Shown here piece by piece: positions 10,449 to 40,014 of a stretch of 64,000 nt of DNA. Location of the stretch: the IMG/VR virus record IMGVR_UViG_3300018412_000011. One strand, given 5' to 3'. This stretch comes from an uncultured virus (IMG/VR IMGVR_UViG_3300018412_000011). Its lineage: Duplodnaviria; Heunggongvirae; Uroviricota; Caudoviricetes. A program made the position numbers and the translations under genes. Positions within the stretch are counted from its first letter, which is position 1. Every line of letters starts with the position of its first letter. The notes under the pieces were generated by a model. That model ran no database searches and was not told the DNA's origin. It was given only the letters and a program-made list of their open reading frames with translations.

Positions 10449-10795
10449 GGGGATGATTGGAATCGATTCATATCGAAATAGCACTTTTGCATGGAGAATT
10501 CCATAACTTCTATAAAATATGGATAAAACTAAACGACAAAAGTTTAGAAATAGCTGCTTAAACAAAGCAGTTCGGGAAATAAGTAGATTATCTTAGTATC
10601 TTAAAATACCGTAAAATAACAAGATGGATTAAGAAAGTCCTTCTTTCTTTGACTTCTAGCAAAGACTAGATGCATTCTGATAGAAGAATCAGACAGAGTT
10701 TGTTTATGTCTCTGCTAACAAATAAACTAACCTTGTGAATGATAAAGTGTGGTTTCATAGAGAAGAAGGGAGTTCGAATCTCCCCATCTCCACCA
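10449..10795 (+). ncRNA. ssrA: tmRNA
   Basis: Acceptor stem GGGGATG/CATCTCC-ACCA with G3:U70, T-arm GGGAG-TTCGAAT-CTCCC, tag frame ...LNDKSLEIAA-stop at 10529-10561. Confidence 0.95.
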
Positions 10796-10800
10796 ATTTT

Positions 10801-10829
10801 AAAAGCGTAGCATTTGCTACGCTTTTTTT
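10801..10829. terminator. Bidirectional intrinsic terminator
   Basis: AAAAGCGTAGCA-TT-TGCTACGCTTTTTT between the convergent tmRNA and sigma genes. Confidence 0.85.
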
Positions 10830-13944: not shown

Positions 13945-14020
13945 TGGTGCTTGTGGTGGGATTCGAACCCACACTCTCAGAAGGTTAGAATTTCTGGCTC
14001 TACCATTGAGCTATACAAGC
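13945..14020 (-). tRNA. tRNA with CUA anticodon (amber suppressor candidate)
   Basis: 76-nt cloverleaf GCTTGTATAGCTCAATGGTAGAGC-CAGAAA-TTCTAAC-CTTCTG...GTGGGTTCGAATCCCAC...ACCA. The stem pairs only with CTA at 34-36; there are A:C mismatches at 7:66 and 31:39. Confidence 0.75.
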
Positions 14021-30039: not shown

Positions 30040-30080
30040 TAAAAGCGCTTGTTGAAAAATTGTTTATGAAAAACGATTTG

Positions 30081-30151
30081 TGTCAAAAGTATGACTCGAA
30101 CTTACATCTTCCCCATACTAAGGGAAACTTCTGCCATTGAAATATTTGGGC
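30081..30151 (-). pseudogene. Degenerate tRNA-Thr(AGT)
   Basis: Anticodon arm TTCCC-TTAGTAT-GGGGA and TTCGAG loop; acceptor and T stems mismatched, no CCA. Confidence 0.55.
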
Positions 30152-30201
30152 CTATTTGTGAAATTTCGTGCAAGATATTTTGGGCATTATTTATAGTAAA
30201 A

Positions 30202-30276
30202 TGGTACTCGGTGAGAGAATCGAACTCCCATCATCGGTATGTAACACCGAGGTCTTAGCCGTTGGACAAACCGAGC
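30202..30276 (-). tRNA. tRNA-Val(TAC)
   Basis: Cloverleaf; anticodon arm TCGGT-GTTACAT-ACCGA; CCA end. Confidence 0.8.
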
Positions 30277-30323
30277 ATAATTAACCAAAACTTACTTTAT
30301 GCTTTTACGCCCACCAAATAAAA

Positions 30324-30400
30324 TGGTGGTCGATACTGGACTTGAACCAGTTACCCCTTCAATGTCAATGAAGTGCTCTAGCCAAATGAGCTAATCGACC
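30324..30400 (-). tRNA. tRNA-Val(GAC)
   Basis: Canonical cloverleaf; CTTCA-TTGACAT-TGAAG; ACCA. Confidence 0.92.
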
Positions 30401-30406
30401 ATAAAA

Positions 30407-30509
30407 TGGAACATGAGGTGGGCTATTTACCCTACTTCTCCGCCTTAACCTGGGAACCAAACGTGTTTCAACGCTCATTTCGAGCTTCAAAAATAAAAGC
30501 TTCTCATGC
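30407..30509 (-). ncRNA. tRNA-like RNA with enlarged centre, anticodon undetermined
   Basis: Acceptor GCATGAG/CTCATGT-TCCA, D-like GCTT/AAGC hairpin, atypical T-arm. Confidence 0.45.
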
Positions 30510-30642
30510 ATAAAATGTGCAAGCGGTAACTGTAAACTATCTCAACTCTTAAACCGACAGACTGTTATCTTTGTTCCAGACAAAGTTGCAGTAATTCAGA
30601 AAGCATCAATGATTTAATACTCAATCCCTTACTTGCGGAAAT

Positions 30643-30746
30643 TGGCGGGCCTGCTCTCACCCGAGTCAAACCACTTAAGTCTCTGTAATGGTGGAAGAGG
30701 GTCACATCCCCTATACACAAAACTTCAATGACAGGCAGGTTTCGCC
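30643..30746 (-). ncRNA. Structured small RNA candidate in the tRNA array
   Basis: Ends pair (GGCG..CCTGC / GCAGG..CGCC) and the sequence finishes in CCA. Confidence 0.4.
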
Positions 30747-30751
30747 TAAAT

Positions 30752-30859
30752 TGGTGAATGGGGCAAGATTCGAACTTGCGGCGACTTCTTAAACTCGTTT
30801 TTCGGACCTTTCCATCCATCATAGTTTAAGTACGGCTCTACCAACTGAGCTACACATTC
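30752..30859 (-). tRNA. tRNA-like gene with a greatly extended anticodon arm (identity undetermined)
   Basis: Normal acceptor, D (GCTCAGTTGGTAGAGC) and T arms with ACCA; about 32 extra nt around a CTTAAAC/GTTTAAG stem. Confidence 0.65.
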
Positions 30860-30866
30860 AAAAAAT

Positions 30867-30964
30867 TGGTGGATCGACTGGGGTTCGAACCCAGGACTCC
30901 AAGATTAATCATTTGCGCTATCTTACGCTGAAGTCTCGTACTCTACCAACTGAGTTACCGATCC
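30867..30964 (-). tRNA. tRNA-Lys(TTT)-like gene with a 22-nt insertion in the anticodon loop
   Basis: Removing 30909-30930 gives a 76-nt cloverleaf with CGAGA-CTTTTAA-TCTTG. Confidence 0.75.
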
Positions 30965-30967
30965 ATT

Positions 30968-31390
30968 TTAAATTTCGTAATCTTTTGCCCATCTAACCCC
31001 TATAGCTTGATTATTTTTAGAAGCCTCGACTCTTAATGTGGCTTGCTTAAAACCAACTTTGTCAACAGGAACAATATAGCATTTATTTAAGTCGGGACTA
31101 TATATTCCAAAAAGGTCAATTTGTCCTCTATAACTTTGTTTTTCATGCTTTGTAGAAGATCCTTCCGGAACATGATAAGTGGAACTACAACAAGGAAAAA
31201 CAAGAACTCCTTTTATAAGATTAGCTGTTTTTATTTGAACTCTTTCAAGACCATTGCCTCTGTCAATAACACAATCATATCTTTCACAATCTCCTAATAC
31301 ATCAGCTACAACCCATTCATTTTCTAGGCATTTCGCCATAAAATAAATTTCGCTAATTGTTCCCTTTCTTTTGGGTGCTTTCTTTTTCAT
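30968..31390 (-). CDS. PD-(D/E)XK endonuclease of the group I intron-associated (I-Ssp6803I-like) type
   Basis: GTISE, RYDCVID...RVQIKT and YRGQIDLFGIY motifs; lies between two tRNA-Lys genes. Confidence 0.8.
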   Translation of the reverse strand: MKKKAPKRKGTISEIYFMAKCLENEWVVADVLGDCERYDCVIDRGNGLERVQIKTANLIKGVLVFPCCSSTYHVPEGSSTKHEKQSYRGQIDLFGIYSPDLNKCYIVPVDKVGFKQATLRVEASKNNQAIGVRWAKDYEI

Positions 31391-31470
31391 TTAGTTCTCC
31401 TTGTTAAACCATGAGAATGGTTCTCTTTTGGTTTAAGGAATTCTTTCAAAAAATACAAAAAATTACAAAA

Positions 31471-31557
31471 TGGTGGGCGCAGAGGGAGTCGAACCCCCGT
31501 TGAGATTTTATTCTCGCGGCTTAAAAGGCCGATGCATAACCATTCTGCCATACACCC
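31471..31557 (-). tRNA. tRNA-Lys(TTT) with a long variable arm
   Basis: 87-nt cloverleaf; CGGC-CTTTTAA-GCCG; variable stem GAGA..TCTC; ACCA. Confidence 0.8.
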
Positions 31558-31615
31558 AATTTTAAAAAATTTCAAATTTCAAAGAACAATCAATTTTTGA
31601 GAAAAATTGTAAAGC

Positions 31616-31646
31616 AAAAAACCCGACCTTTCCAAGTCGGGTTTTG
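31616..31646 (-). terminator. Attenuator terminator of the Lys/Val/Thr tRNA operon
   Basis: AAAACCCGACTT-GGAA-AGGTCGGGTTTTTT; competing segment AGTTGGGTTTTG at 31666-31677. Confidence 0.85.
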
Positions 31647-31677: not shown

Positions 31678-31734
31678 TTAAGTAGTTTTAACTACCTTGA
31701 AAGTTTTTATGGTTTTGACTTTAACTAAGCTCAT
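31678..31734 (-). CDS. Leader peptide MSLVKVKTIKTFKVVKTT (Val/Lys/Thr sensor)
   Basis: 13 of 17 post-Met codons are Val, Lys or Thr; starts 9 nt after the -10 box. Confidence 0.85.
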   Translation of the reverse strand: MSLVKVKTIKTFKVVKTT

Positions 31735-31743
31735 GATGTAAAC

Positions 31744-31771
31744 AATATACTCTTTTTTCGAATTTATGCAA
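31744..31771 (-). promoter_or_regulatory. Promoter of the Lys/Val/Thr tRNA operon
   Basis: TTGCAT-N16-TATATT. Confidence 0.75.
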
Positions 31772-34748: not shown

Positions 34749-35520
34749 AAAAAAATGAAGCAATATTTTTCAGTATTGCTTCAGGTATAGGATGAGATTA
34801 CTCCGTTAACAAGGGTCCATTTGCAAACTTATTTTTTATTTGCGTATCCACTGTTTTACCAGTTGACCCTCACATTCGCCTTTTTAAATTGGAGGCTGTT
34901 CCAATCATTATAGATTCTTCTGCAAAACTTTCGACTTCCGAAACTAGCTAGGTTCCAAAAATCTAGTTATTCTACAAACTCTTAAGCCTTGCGAGCTTAA
35001 AAGCCCCTGGAGATCCAGGCGTTGAATGCTTACCTCTACGATGGGACGGGATTATTGCTTTTGAAGTTTATTTGGATTTAAACCAAGTCTTCATGACTTA
35101 TATTACTCAATTGTGAAATCCGCACCCGCCCATCTGTTTCGCTTCTTTCGAAACAAAATGCAGAACGAATCTCTATCCTCGTCTTGCGTGACGTTTGGAC
35201 GCTTTTCTAGGATTCCCCCTGACCTTTTAACGTCAGTAATCTTCCTATCAAGTTGCATGCAGCCATTAAAACGCAAATAATTTTGACCGTATGCTTACCC
35301 TTTGACCAACTCTTCTTTCTCTATCTAGATTACCATTCGGCATTTCCAGAGGAACTTTCGTTCTTTCGATACTCGAAAAGAATCTCCCCTTGTGGAAAGA
35401 ATTCTAGTCTCGGCTTGCATCAGTGACCTTTTCCAAGGCGATCTACGTCTTGAGTGCGTAGACCTTTTTTATATGTTGCCATATATCTATCTTCCCCGAA
35501 GGAGGATGTGATACCACCCT
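34749..35520 (-). ncRNA. Large (~770 nt) structured ncRNA, GOLLD/ROOL-like candidate
   Basis: ORF-free, GC-richer, many GNRA-capped hairpins; own promoter (35583-35610), boxB/boxA-like leader (35535-35565) and terminator (34749-34782). Confidence 0.7.
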
Positions 35521-36464: not shown

Positions 36465-36491
36465 AAAAAACCCCAACAAAAAATGTTGGGG
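36465..36491 (-). terminator. Intrinsic terminator after hsp20
   Basis: CCCCAACA-TTTTT-TGTTGGGG-TTTTTT. Confidence 0.75.
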
Positions 36492-36522
36492 AAAATGTCA
36501 AAACTAAGATGCTTTATTTAGT

Positions 36523-36993
36523 TTATTTAATCTCAATTAACCTTTTTGTTTCTTCCTTTTCTTTATAGGGAATCACAATGGTTAACAATCCATCTTTCAT
36601 TTCGGCTTTGATATCAACCTCATTAAGATTAGGATCTGTCAATTGATACGAATGAGAGAAGGATCTTTGGGTAATCCCCCTATACATCTCTGTTTTGTGA
36701 GAAGTATCTTCTTTAGCTTGAACTGCGGAAACCGTTAAAATCCCATCATCAAACTCAACTTTCACATCATCTTTGGTATAACCTGACAATGCGAATTTGA
36801 ATTCTAGGGCCAAAGGATTTCCTTCATCATCTTCGATTTTATTTAAATCGAAAGGTACGCCTCTCTCTTGAGAAGCGTATATCTTTGGCGACCAATGATC
36901 TCCTTTGAAAAAAGTTTCAAAGAAAGGATCATCAAAAGCGTCTGAATTAAAGACGCTAGGCATTCTTCTTCTGTATTTAGTTAATGTTGTCAT
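36523..36993 (-). CDS. Small heat-shock protein (Hsp20/IbpA-like)
   Basis: FALSGYTKDDV, RGITQRSF and AEMKDGLLTI motifs. Confidence 0.92.
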   Translation of the reverse strand: MTTLTKYRRRMPSVFNSDAFDDPFFETFFKGDHWSPKIYASQERGVPFDLNKIEDDEGNPLALEFKFALSGYTKDDVKVEFDDGILTVSAVQAKEDTSHKTEMYRGITQRSFSHSYQLTDPNLNEVDIKAEMKDGLLTIVIPYKEKEETKRLIEIK

Positions 36994-37350
36994 GTTTATC
37001 TCCTTTTCAGCTAGATGTTAAGTTTATATTCCTTCATAAGATTTCATTTGAAAAATCAAATGATGTTCAGACATATGAACTTAATTTTGACATATTTTTT
37101 ATGTTTTTCTGGAACACTCTTTCGACATGTTCCTAGAATGTATCGAATCAATCGACATATTCTTACCAATATTATACTTTAAAATGTTAAAAATGCAAAA
37201 AAATTTTTACAAAAATATAAACAGAACAACGTACCTGTCTTCCACCTCAAACTCTATTTGAAATATTCTTTCTTGCTTCTTAATTAATAAAAAAATATAG
37301 TTTTATTTGAATATATTTTACATCACATCTAACGTGTCGTAAAATATAAA

Positions 37351-37590
37351 ATGAAAACATATGTCAAAGAAAAAATAGAAGTAAGAAACTTAAACAAAGT
37401 CCAATGTGATGTTTGCAAAAAAGAAGCCAATATTGAAGATGTTGATGAAATGAGTTTTATTCAAGAGATGACTCATATTTCCTATACAGGAGGGTATGGA
37501 AGTATTTTTGGAGACATGAATAAAATTGAGCTAGATATTTGCGATAAATGCCTAAATGAACAGTTGGGGAATTTCATTAGAGTTAATTAA
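37351..37590 (+). CDS. Small Zn-ribbon protein
   Basis: CDVC...GGYGSIFGD...CDKC. Confidence 0.7.
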   Translation: MKTYVKEKIEVRNLNKVQCDVCKKEANIEDVDEMSFIQEMTHISYTGGYGSIFGDMNKIELDICDKCLNEQLGNFIRVN

Positions 37591-37591
37591 A

Positions 37592-37683
37592 TGGTAGGCA
37601 GAGTGGGACTCGAACCCACACTTCGTACACGATTAGTCAGAGTTTATAAGACTCCCGGCTTCACCAAATTTGCCTATCTGCCT
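37592..37683 (-). tRNA. tRNA-Ile(TAT) with a long variable arm
   Basis: Acceptor AGGCAGA/TCTGCCT-ACCA; GGAGT-CTTATAA-ACTCT; 19-nt variable region. Confidence 0.8.
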
Positions 37684-37694
37684 ATTTTAAAAAC

Positions 37695-37720
37695 AAAAAA
37701 CCAACCCTTTCGAGTTGGCT
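37695..37720 (-). terminator. Attenuator terminator of the tRNA-Ile gene
   Basis: GCCAACTC-GAAA-GGGTTGGTTTTTT; competing GGGTTGG at 37762-37768 inside the leader. Confidence 0.85.
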
Positions 37721-37747
37721 TTTAATGCATGGAAAAAAGAAAAACAG

Positions 37748-37816
37748 TTAACACATGGAATCCAACCCAAATAAAATTGAGTTAGCTATTCGTATGATGT
37801 TAATGATTTGCTTCAT
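37748..37816 (-). CDS. Leader peptide MKQIINIIRIANSILFGLDSMC (Ile sensor)
   Basis: Six Ile codons (ATC ATT ATC ATA ATA ATT); ATG 6 nt after TTGACT-N16-TATATT (37823-37850). Confidence 0.82.
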   Translation of the reverse strand: MKQIINIIRIANSILFGLDSMC

Positions 37817-37846
37817 GTCTACAATATACGCTTAAAAAGAAATAAG

Positions 37847-38347
37847 TCAATGATTTTCTCGTTCAATTTTTAATGTTTCTTTTATTTTGGGAATATCGAC
37901 CTCTTGTAATCCATGTTCTTCATTGATTAAGATATGATGCTTTTTCAATTTCTCATCTGAAGCATCTGGATCATCATCCAAAATCACAAAATTGGTTACT
38001 TCAGGATGTTCATCGAACCATGAATGAATTTCATAATATCTTGGAATATACTCTGAAAAATGAAAATATCTCCCTTTATATCCTTTAACCCGAATACAAG
38101 GAGTTTTGTCCCAAATATCAAAAACAGTTTTAACTGCCTTATATCCATCTTCTAAGTTTCTCCAAGTTGATGACAAAACAATTTTTGCATCAAATTCTTT
38201 TTGAATGTCTTTGACTATTTTTATACTTCCAGGATCAAAACCACTAATGGATCTATACACGGAATGATCTTTGGTTTTATCAAACAAATTGTCTAAATAA
38301 ATCCAATTATTAATTACTCCATCAATATCTAGAAATATAACTTTCAT
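37847..38347 (-). CDS. HAD-family phosphatase (RNA-repair-associated type)
   Basis: MKVIFLDIDGV, IVLSSTWR and FVILDDD motifs. Confidence 0.85.
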   Translation of the reverse strand: MKVIFLDIDGVINNWIYLDNLFDKTKDHSVYRSISGFDPGSIKIVKDIQKEFDAKIVLSSTWRNLEDGYKAVKTVFDIWDKTPCIRVKGYKGRYFHFSEYIPRYYEIHSWFDEHPEVTNFVILDDDPDASDEKLKKHHILINEEHGLQEVDIPKIKETLKIERENH

Positions 38348-39473: not shown

Positions 39474-39553
39474 TGGAGTGCTAGACAGGAATCGAACCTG
39501 CTTTTACGTCTAGATTGGAAATCTAGGGACTCACCTTTCGCCTCAACTAGCAC
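39474..39553 (-). tRNA. tRNA-Gly(TCC)
   Basis: Acceptor GTGCTAG/CTAGCAC, U73, CTAGA-TTTCCAA-TCTAG; atypical D-arm. Confidence 0.8.
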
Positions 39554-39574
39554 ATGTTTTATTATACAGTAAAA

Positions 39575-39666
39575 TGGTGGGGCCAGACGGGATCGAACCG
39601 ACGACCTTCTGAATGCATCATTGTCTTTCGACGAATCAGACGCTCTCCCAGCTGAGCTAATCCCCC
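39575..39666 (-). tRNA. tRNA-Ala-like gene with a 16-nt anticodon-loop insertion; acceptor stem partly mismatched
   Basis: GGGGGATTAGCTCAGCTGGGAGAGCG start; removing 39618-39633 gives TCTGA-TTTGCAT-TCAGA; lacks G3:U70. Confidence 0.65.
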
Positions 39667-39700
39667 ATTAGGATTGGTATTTACATTATACAATAAAAAT

Positions 39701-39779
39701 TGGTGGAAGTGACGGGTCTCGAACCCGCAAAACTCCGCATTGCAAGTGCGGTGCTTTACCGTACATAAGCTTCACCCCC
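39701..39779 (-). tRNA. tRNA-Ala(TGC)
   Basis: G3:U70, CCGCA-CTTGCAA-TGCGG, ACCA. Confidence 0.88.
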
Positions 39780-39836
39780 ATTATAATATTTCAAATTTTT
39801 TAAAGAACAATTAATTTTTGAGAAAAATCATAAAAC

Positions 39837-39867
39837 AAAAAACCCAATCTTTAGCGAGATTGGGTTT
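39837..39867 (-). terminator. Attenuator terminator of the Ala/Gly tRNA operon
   Basis: AAACCCAATCT-CGCTAA-AGATTGGGTTTTTT; competing GATTGGGTTT at 39886-39895 overlaps the leader stop codon. Confidence 0.88.
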
Positions 39868-39893
39868 CGGAAAAATCGACAATACAAACCCAA

Positions 39894-39971
39894 TCAGAAG
39901 GAGATACCTCCTGCCGCTGCGGCCCCGCCGTTTCCAATGTTTGTATAAATTTTTTTCAAGTTTTTAATCAT
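39894..39971 (-). CDS. Leader peptide MIKNLKKIYTNIGNGGAAAAGGISF (Gly/Ala sensor)
   Basis: GGA AAC GGC GGG GCC GCA GCG GCA GGA GGT; ATG 6 nt after TTGCAT-N16-TATATT (39978-40005). Confidence 0.88.
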   Translation of the reverse strand: MIKNLKKIYTNIGNGGAAAAGGISF

Positions 39972-40014
39972 GGAATCAATATAACGCATCTTTAACATTA
40001 TGCAAGAAAAATTT

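Follow-up and report, generated by a model that had tools for sequence, protein, structure and literature searches.

Leader-peptide attenuation, as in trp, his, leu, thr and ilvGMEDA, and the T-boxes that precede tRNA genes in Firmicutes are the described systems closest to the arrangement reported here. The pheST attenuator is also of the classical leader-peptide kind, trp, leuS and ilvB are candidates in actinobacteria, and similar-looking ilvB leaders of Streptomyces gave no response when their control codons were mutated (PMC1262725). In T-box antitermination, read-through follows a shortage of charged tRNA (PMC4052509). Phages, for their part, supply replacement tRNAs, such as T5 tRNA-Lys against PARIS (PMC11464382) and tRNA-Tyr against retron Eco7 (PMC11555353), and expression of these counter-defense tRNAs is ascribed to a strong promoter. 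The strings 'attenuat' and 'leader' are absent from the text of PMC11555353, PMC10264068 and PMC12484599, and a search of the literature outside subscription journals yielded no published account of leader-peptide attenuation of tRNA genes.

We describe a unit in an uncultured phage in which an Ile-rich leader precedes a single tRNA gene with a UAU anticodon. Judged from its sequence, the attenuator-like unit is genuine and well formed, has a predicted function and is the simplest example of an arrangement that is widespread in phages. As in classical attenuators, it has a short control-codon leader, a protector, an antiterminator and a U-run terminator; its leader is enriched in the control codons, and its antiterminator and terminator are mutually exclusive in silico. 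The single-amino-acid form of this unit and the multivalent form of two sister units are likewise both classical. By contrast with classical attenuators, these putative attenuators appear to start leaderless and precede phage tRNA genes rather than biosynthetic or synthetase genes, so that what is sensed would be a shortage of the product itself. Read-through upon a shortage of charged tRNA recalls the T-box, but here the ribosome would do the sensing; no Rfam match to a T-box, with its stem I specifier loop and antiterminator bulge, was obtained at the gathering threshold or at E<=1. Supply also appears conditional, unlike that of the counter-defense tRNAs. The mechanism is known; the target, tRNA genes, is new.

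The window analyzed here, 64,000 nucleotides long, is the stretch 62001-126000 of a 135,411-nt virus record (G+C 32%; ~53% complete). At the Ile unit it matches contigs of sequencing run X1, possibly its source, and a short, low-depth X4 contig. The layout proposed in the original prediction, an Ile attenuator ahead of one tRNA(UAU), stands on the minus strand (Table 1) and now has two companions: the Ile codons are 4 (ATC), 5 (ATT), 7 (ATC), 8 (ATA), 10 (ATA) and 14 (ATT), and no second tRNA lies before the next genes. The motif GGGTTGG in codons 17-19 (37768..37762) copies the 3' arm of the terminator and can therefore pair with CCAACTC in its 5' arm (37718..37712), as predicted. A protector hairpin formed by segments 1 and 2 had been overlooked. 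The leader ATG lies 6 nt past the -10 box, so close that the transcript is probably leaderless, and the terminator ends 12 nt ahead of the tRNA.

Table 1. Positions of the Ile unit, its two sister units and other RNA features (window coordinates)
Feature	Position	Strand	Remarks
Ile unit, promoter-like site	37823..37850	-	TTGACT-16 nt-TATATT; 10/12 consensus
Ile unit, Ile-rich leader ORF	37748..37816	-	22 codons, 6 Ile (2 ATC, 2 ATT, 2 ATA); ATG at 37816
Ile unit, segment 1, protector arm	37777..37785	-	predicted folds; pairs with segment 2 if ribosome absent
Ile unit, segment 2, antiterminator arm	37762..37770	-	predicted folds; holds GGGTTGG of codons 17-19
Ile unit, intrinsic terminator	37696..37723	-	GAAA loop, U run; segments 3 (37718..37712) and 4 (37707..37701)
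Ile unit, tRNA with UAU anticodon	37592..37683	-	encoded CCA; ARAGORN; Rfam 57 bits
Unit 2, promoter-like site	begins at 40005	-	
Unit 2, leader	39894..39971	-	25 codons; 9 Ala+Gly in block at codons 13-22
Unit 2, terminator	39839..39868	-	boxA-like motif then at 39809..39798
Unit 2, tRNA array	39474..39779	-	Ala/Ala-like/Gly
Unit 2, Ala(UGC) tRNA	39779..39701	-	
Unit 2, Ala-like tRNA	39666..39575	-	16-nt anticodon-loop insertion; mispaired acceptor (three mismatches)
Unit 2, Gly(UCC) tRNA	39553..39474	-	
Unit 3, promoter-like site	begins at 31771	-	
Unit 3, leader	31678..31734	-	18 codons; 13 Lys+Val+Thr
Unit 3, terminator	31616..31641	-	U run; boxA-like motif then at 31588..31577
Unit 3, array	30080..31557	-	Lys(UUU), PD-(D/E)XK endonuclease gene, two tRNA-like genes, Val(GAC), Val(UAC), Thr(AGU)
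Unit 3, tRNA-Lys(UUU)	31557..31471	-	17-nt variable region
tRNA gene with anticodon-loop insertion	30964..30867	-	22-nt insertion
Irregular tRNA-like gene	30859..30752	-	long hairpin insertion in anticodon arm
CUA-anticodon tRNA	14020..13945	-	amber suppressor-like; between nucleotidase and Tpt1 genes
tmRNA, phage-encoded	10449..10795	+	terminator then at 10805
GOLLD-like RNA	35173..34789	-	between tRNA units; 137 bits, below 150 cut-off

We favor, with moderate confidence, the reading that this is a ribosome-dependent transcription attenuator, in which a stall at any Ile codon would release transcription of a tRNA(UAU) that the host likely charges with Ile. Host RNA polymerase would start at or just before the leader ATG, as the spacing shared with the sister units suggests. 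A ribosome that reaches the stop codon is predicted to cover segment 2, letting segments 3 and 4 pair, so that transcription stops 12 nt short of the tRNA. If slowed on Ile codon 5, 7, 8 or 10, the ribosome would instead cover segment 1, and segment 2, thus freed, would pair with segment 3 while segment 4 has yet to be transcribed; polymerase would then enter the tRNA gene, provided that folding is co-transcriptional. If the leader were left untranslated, 1:2 and 3:4 should both form and the gene stay off. The new tRNA would restore AUA decoding free of lysidine and relieve the stall, closing a negative feedback loop.

Folding simulations agree with this scheme. With the transcript cut at the terminator loop and the ribosome represented by a 12-nt mask, the probability that the terminator 5' arm is captured was 0.07 for the ribosome-free transcript. 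A ribosome on any of codons 5-12 raised it to 0.94-1.00, whereas for positions from codon 14 onward it was <=0.21, and at the stop it was again 0.07; masks of 9 and 15 nt gave a curve of the same shape, with the on window moved by one codon. For the full-length transcript at equilibrium, the terminator dominates at every ribosome position (P about 1.0), and the switch therefore requires co-transcriptional folding, a dependence found in classical attenuators as well (PMC1262725). In the four simulated units (three in this phage and L205, a metagenome locus described below), the predicted on window closes no more than ~2 codons from the final or penultimate cognate codon, and the sequence of segments 2, 3 and 4 differs in each.

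The Ile content of the leader (6 of 21 codons) exceeds that of the phage's own proteins (P=0.0046) and of dinucleotide shuffles (P=0.019), and the other two frames hold one Ile each. The region folds with z=-4.3, a stability attained by 0/200 shuffles; the antiterminator duplex energy was reached by 24/1000 shuffles and the switch amplitude by 0/40. Only 11 terminators in the whole 135 kb pass our rule, and three of them precede tRNA units. On composition (P=0.019) and duplex (24/1000), the Ile unit is statistically the weakest of the three. Taken alone, its promoter match is at chance level (10 such matches versus 9.4 expected); the promoter-to-ATG spacing, however, is common to all three leaders, which make up 3 of 13 promoter-plus-ATG matches genome-wide.

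The sister units carry the same logic to other amino acids. Ala and Gly occupy 9 of 24 codons in the unit 2 leader (binomial P=1.9e-4; shuffles 1e-4), and Lys, Val and Thr take 13 of 17 in unit 3 (binomial P=9e-7; 0/20000 shuffles). Their antiterminator duplexes were reached by 1/1000 and 0/1000 shuffles, respectively, and the amplitude by 1/40 in each case; unit 3 lacks a protector, and capture there is 0.99 even without a ribosome. When each leader is scored against each tRNA cluster, the z values on the diagonal are 3.5, 4.8 and 5.8, and those off the diagonal range from -1.8 to 1.6.

Several tRNA genes of these arrays are unusually built. Both tRNA-like genes of unit 3 bear insertions in the anticodon arm, and a 17-nt variable region such as that of its tRNA-Lys(UUU) occurs in 1 of 36 scored Lys(UUU) genes of the loci studied. 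Removal of the 22-nt insertion could yield Lys(UUU), and removal of the 16-nt insertion in unit 2 could yield Ala(UGC). These products match the leaders of their own units, although the excision could also follow other registers; each insertion has AAUGA at its end.

Of the three boxA-like motifs in the contig, two belong to units 2 and 3, and the Ile unit has none. Their presence after two of three terminators is consistent with a leader that reports general translation speed or coupling, or with a fixed stop overridden by phage or Nus antitermination, codon identity being irrelevant in either case. Equilibrium folding that favors termination throughout and the Streptomyces precedent (PMC1262725) point the same way. 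These motifs, however, lie downstream of the terminators, and the amino-acid match between leader and product in three units, and in the IMG/VR families described next, would be left unexplained. We regard this codon-independent explanation as highly improbable.

Comparable arrangements occur in other phages. An IMG/VR scan for a boxA followed by a tRNA T-loop, in which no terminator was presupposed, listed 120 of ~400 stretches, from which we dropped 36 with no tRNA right after boxA, one with short upstream DNA and 34 with a tRNA <=200 nt upstream. Among the matches listed, the 49 boxA-led array starts comprised 22 with a terminator and 27 without one by the rule used, and all 22 terminator-bearing starts had a 12-50-codon ORF in position; in shuffles, the chance of a short ORF meeting the rule was 0.33-0.57 per family. 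Combined with a terminator-led scan (48 loci), this set gave 44 loci in 13 leader families. An antiterminator duplex was found at p<=0.05 in 12 of the 13, and simulated capture with the ribosome at the stop was <=0.33 in all 13; upstream it rose above 0.7 in only 5 families and stayed below in 7 (maximum 0.54-0.69).

The match between leader and array amino acids, summed over 10 families, was 15.5 versus 1.3+-3.8 under permutation (P=1e-4). This set consisted of families whose arrays cover 2-9 amino acids; truncated arrays were kept and the query was left out. The result is driven by L033 (His/Pro/Gln), L245 and L262, the last two being related, and the set includes L216 and L254, in which the rule probably picked the wrong ORF. 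The largest family precedes broad arrays and fits 18-20 different amino acids into 32-42 codons, with the full set of 20 in 10 of its 14 distinct members (P=0.003 for the representative). Leaders of 32-43 codons with 18-20 amino acids also occur as a set (the L021-L061 family, L225, L208 and L207) before broad tRNA arrays, accompanied by a terminator, an antiterminator and boxA. Such leaders are candidate pan-tRNA sensors.

These parallels bear on the possibility that the Ile leader arose by chance, as an ORF in AT-rich DNA next to a terminator that serves the upstream gene in the ordinary way, or that it is a decayed remnant. Of the shuffles, 33-57% do yield a short ORF that passes the rule, promoter matches occur at chance level, and two neighboring tRNA genes look partly degenerate. 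Chance or decay would nevertheless have to account for three independent units that share their promoter spacing and each combine a matching composition with an antiterminator, and for parallels in unrelated phages. The composition, capture and family duplex tests largely refute this explanation, which we find hardly credible.

A stand-alone Ile unit was found only in this contig among the loci examined. Among the matches listed, 2 of 49 first-position long-arm UAU tRNAs had a terminator, neither with an Ile-rich leader; judged by eye, such a leader was present at 0 of 11 tRNA(UAU) loci from a terminator-led scan and at none of 13 loci (4 distinct tRNAs) whose tRNAs share the D arm. Attenuation is not general for these tRNAs. 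Searches for close homologues gave little: blastn of 311 nt against GenBank phages returned only 50-nt tRNA-arm matches in 10 records, a 17-nt anticodon-arm scan found five loci, none with the leader, no relative emerged through the neighboring Hsp20 gene in IMG/VR, and the search with a 30-nt motif shared after the terminators gave 0 matches. In GTDB genomes, the D-arm-plus-UAU pattern, a narrow one, gave 0 matches, and the similarly narrow terminator-boxA-tRNA pattern gave six, none a leader-type array start.

The nearest counterpart is L205, an unrelated metagenome contig with a tRNA(UAU) whose D arm is that of the query and whose variable region measures 20 nt. Its 32-codon leader is rich in Thr, Val and Gly and has three Ile codons, all ATA (P=0.016); it comes with a terminator and an antiterminator whose duplex was reached by 0/1000 shuffles and whose amplitude was reached by 0/40. 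On its minus strand, a long imperfect hairpin (L205:380-310) lies between a boxA-like motif and the tRNA(UAU).

The original prediction took the unit for a backup against loss of AUA decoding, and this survives in part. A UAU anticodon reading AUA without TilS has precedent: the phage tRNA has the C-U-UAU-A-A loop of tRNA-Ile(UAU) from Mycoplasma mobile, lactobacilli and a B. subtilis tilS suppressor, with which AUA is in principle readable without lysidine (PMC3575796). Unlike those tRNAs, it is phage-borne, has a long variable region, is predicted to be expressed conditionally and needs a host IleRS that accepts U34. A switch tuned to AUA only, replacing a lost lysidine-modified host tRNA-Ile2, would explain why ATA8 and ATA10 sit at the center of the on window and why the product's anticodon is UAU. 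The all-ATA Ile codons of L205, before the same type of tRNA, favor a link to AUA, as does suppression of tilS loss in B. subtilis by a UAU tRNA (PMC3575796). The two ATA codons claimed for the leader are present but not enriched (2 of 6, P=0.44; AUA makes up 24% of Ile codons in phage ORFs of 150+ codons), ATT5 and ATC7 fall inside the same sensing window, the L205 leader is mostly Thr, Val and Gly, and the amino acids of the sister units have no tie to TilS. Exclusive tuning to AUA is accordingly unlikely. Because ATT5 and ATC7 lie in the window and AUA is not enriched, losing either of the Ile tRNAs should trigger the unit, and the AUA/TilS mechanism is partly supported as a special case of general Ile sensing. 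The AUA-reading tRNA is usually scarce, and AUA may dominate the signal in practice.

The build of the tRNA raises the question of its charging. Its cloverleaf is of the 7/5 type, its variable arm, missed earlier, is 19 nt long, and it has A1-U72, C4-G69, A73, A15:U48, G at 20a, C12-G23 and A29-U41. Compared with Table 1 of PMC9976931, it holds the Ile identity elements A73, C4-G69, A35, U36, A37 and A38, and lacks the E. coli elements G/L34 (U34 instead), U12-A23 (C12-G23) and C29-G41 (A29-U41). A long variable arm with a UAU anticodon is also found in nev-tRNA-Ile(UAU) (PMC3333845) and allo-tRNA(UAU) (PMC7609411), but the phage tRNA is 7/5 and not of the allo-type 8/4 or 9/3 (as defined in PMC7609411), and it lacks A20a; the nev-tRNAs are eukaryotic Leu derivatives (PMC3333845).

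An attenuator that senses Ile stalls might thus produce something other than tRNA-Ile: a leucylated tRNA, which would free ribosomes by placing Leu at AUA, or an uncharged decoy for an anticodon nuclease. A73, A15:U48 and the long variable region are of Leu type (Leu set of PMC9976931), the nematode long-arm tRNA(UAU) accepts Leu only (PMC3333845), and U34 is accepted by only some IleRS enzymes, that of E. coli charging UAU poorly and the Arg-type well (PMC3575796). The query also lacks a GAU triplet in the variable-arm loop, which is present in 62 of 68 long-arm phage UAU tRNAs among the matches listed (versus 29 of 160 Leu/Ser/Tyr controls) and in all five distinct D-arm relatives. In the other direction, position 20a is G rather than the Leu-type A found in 104 of 108 phage Leu tRNAs, C12-G23 replaces the G12-C23 of 74 of 108, and A9 and A21 match class I tRNAs. 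The D arm recurs in four short-arm relatives, which sit in arrays next to Ile(GAU) tRNAs, and placing Leu at 24% of Ile codons would come at a high cost. We consider a non-Ile product improbable. Since Ile is what the leader counts, its codons 1-14 include none for Leu and the D loop of the tRNA is not Leu-like, charging with Ile by the host appears likely. On E. coli ribosomes, a UAU anticodon is able to misread AUG (PMC3575796).

Long-arm UAU tRNAs appear to be common in phages: we estimate ~1700 stretches in IMG/VR, and of a listed sample of 120 (L085-L204), 80 overlap an ARAGORN call, 75 are distinct and 68 have a sound anticodon stem. The GAU-bearing variable-arm loop is often 7 nt long and resembles an Ile(GAU) anticodon loop; IleRS enzymes that do not accept U34 may use the triplet as a second 'anticodon' in charging.

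RNA-repair genes near the units fit a conflict over tRNA. The window encodes a tmRNA, a GOLLD-like RNA, eight tRNAs called by ARAGORN and three further tRNA-like genes found only with Rfam, and a domain scan (48 of 77 window ORFs of 100+ codons, plus shorter neighbors) identified genes for RNA repair, namely an Rnl2 ligase, Tpt1 and HAD_SAK_2, along with phosphatases. The HAD_SAK_2 gene lies directly upstream of the Ile unit. A search of the ~53%-complete contig for class I synthetase (PF00133) and TilS (PF01171) genes found neither. The CUA-anticodon tRNA suggested a recoded genetic code, but TAG is the stop codon of only 10 of 150 ORFs, and reading with table 11 leaves the ORFs intact, which speaks against recoding. 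On the minus strand between tRNA(UAU) and the Hsp20 gene (window 37590..36491), no terminator was found; read-through past the tRNA could run antisense over a 79-aa plus-strand ORF (37351..37590) into hsp20 and would end at the terminator at 36491.

Three amino-acid-specific units would amount to a demand-driven tRNA supply, most useful if the host tRNA pool is cut or outrun during infection. More broadly, and tentatively, large phages may carry a panel of ribosome-based sensors, with leaders for single amino acids or for all 20, that detects destruction of the host tRNA pool and induces replacement tRNAs only when they are needed. As part of the same tentative reading, those replacements could be of unusual build, including long-arm Ile and Lys tRNAs and anticodon-interrupted copies matured by phage RNA repair, and the whole could constitute an inducible counter-defense against tRNA-cutting immunity, with a dedicated single-gene circuit for AUA/Ile.

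Whether phage tRNAs compensate for codon usage or replace host tRNAs cut by defenses is a long-standing question. Leader codons that name the tRNAs downstream imply a need for these genes at times when those codons fail to be decoded. The Ile unit, with one leader, one switch and one product, offers a direct test in a single gene. If the predicted mechanism is true, it would extend attenuation to a new class of target with direct negative feedback, and such units would provide compact reporters of tRNA damage and pointers to the host tRNAs that are attacked in uncultured systems.
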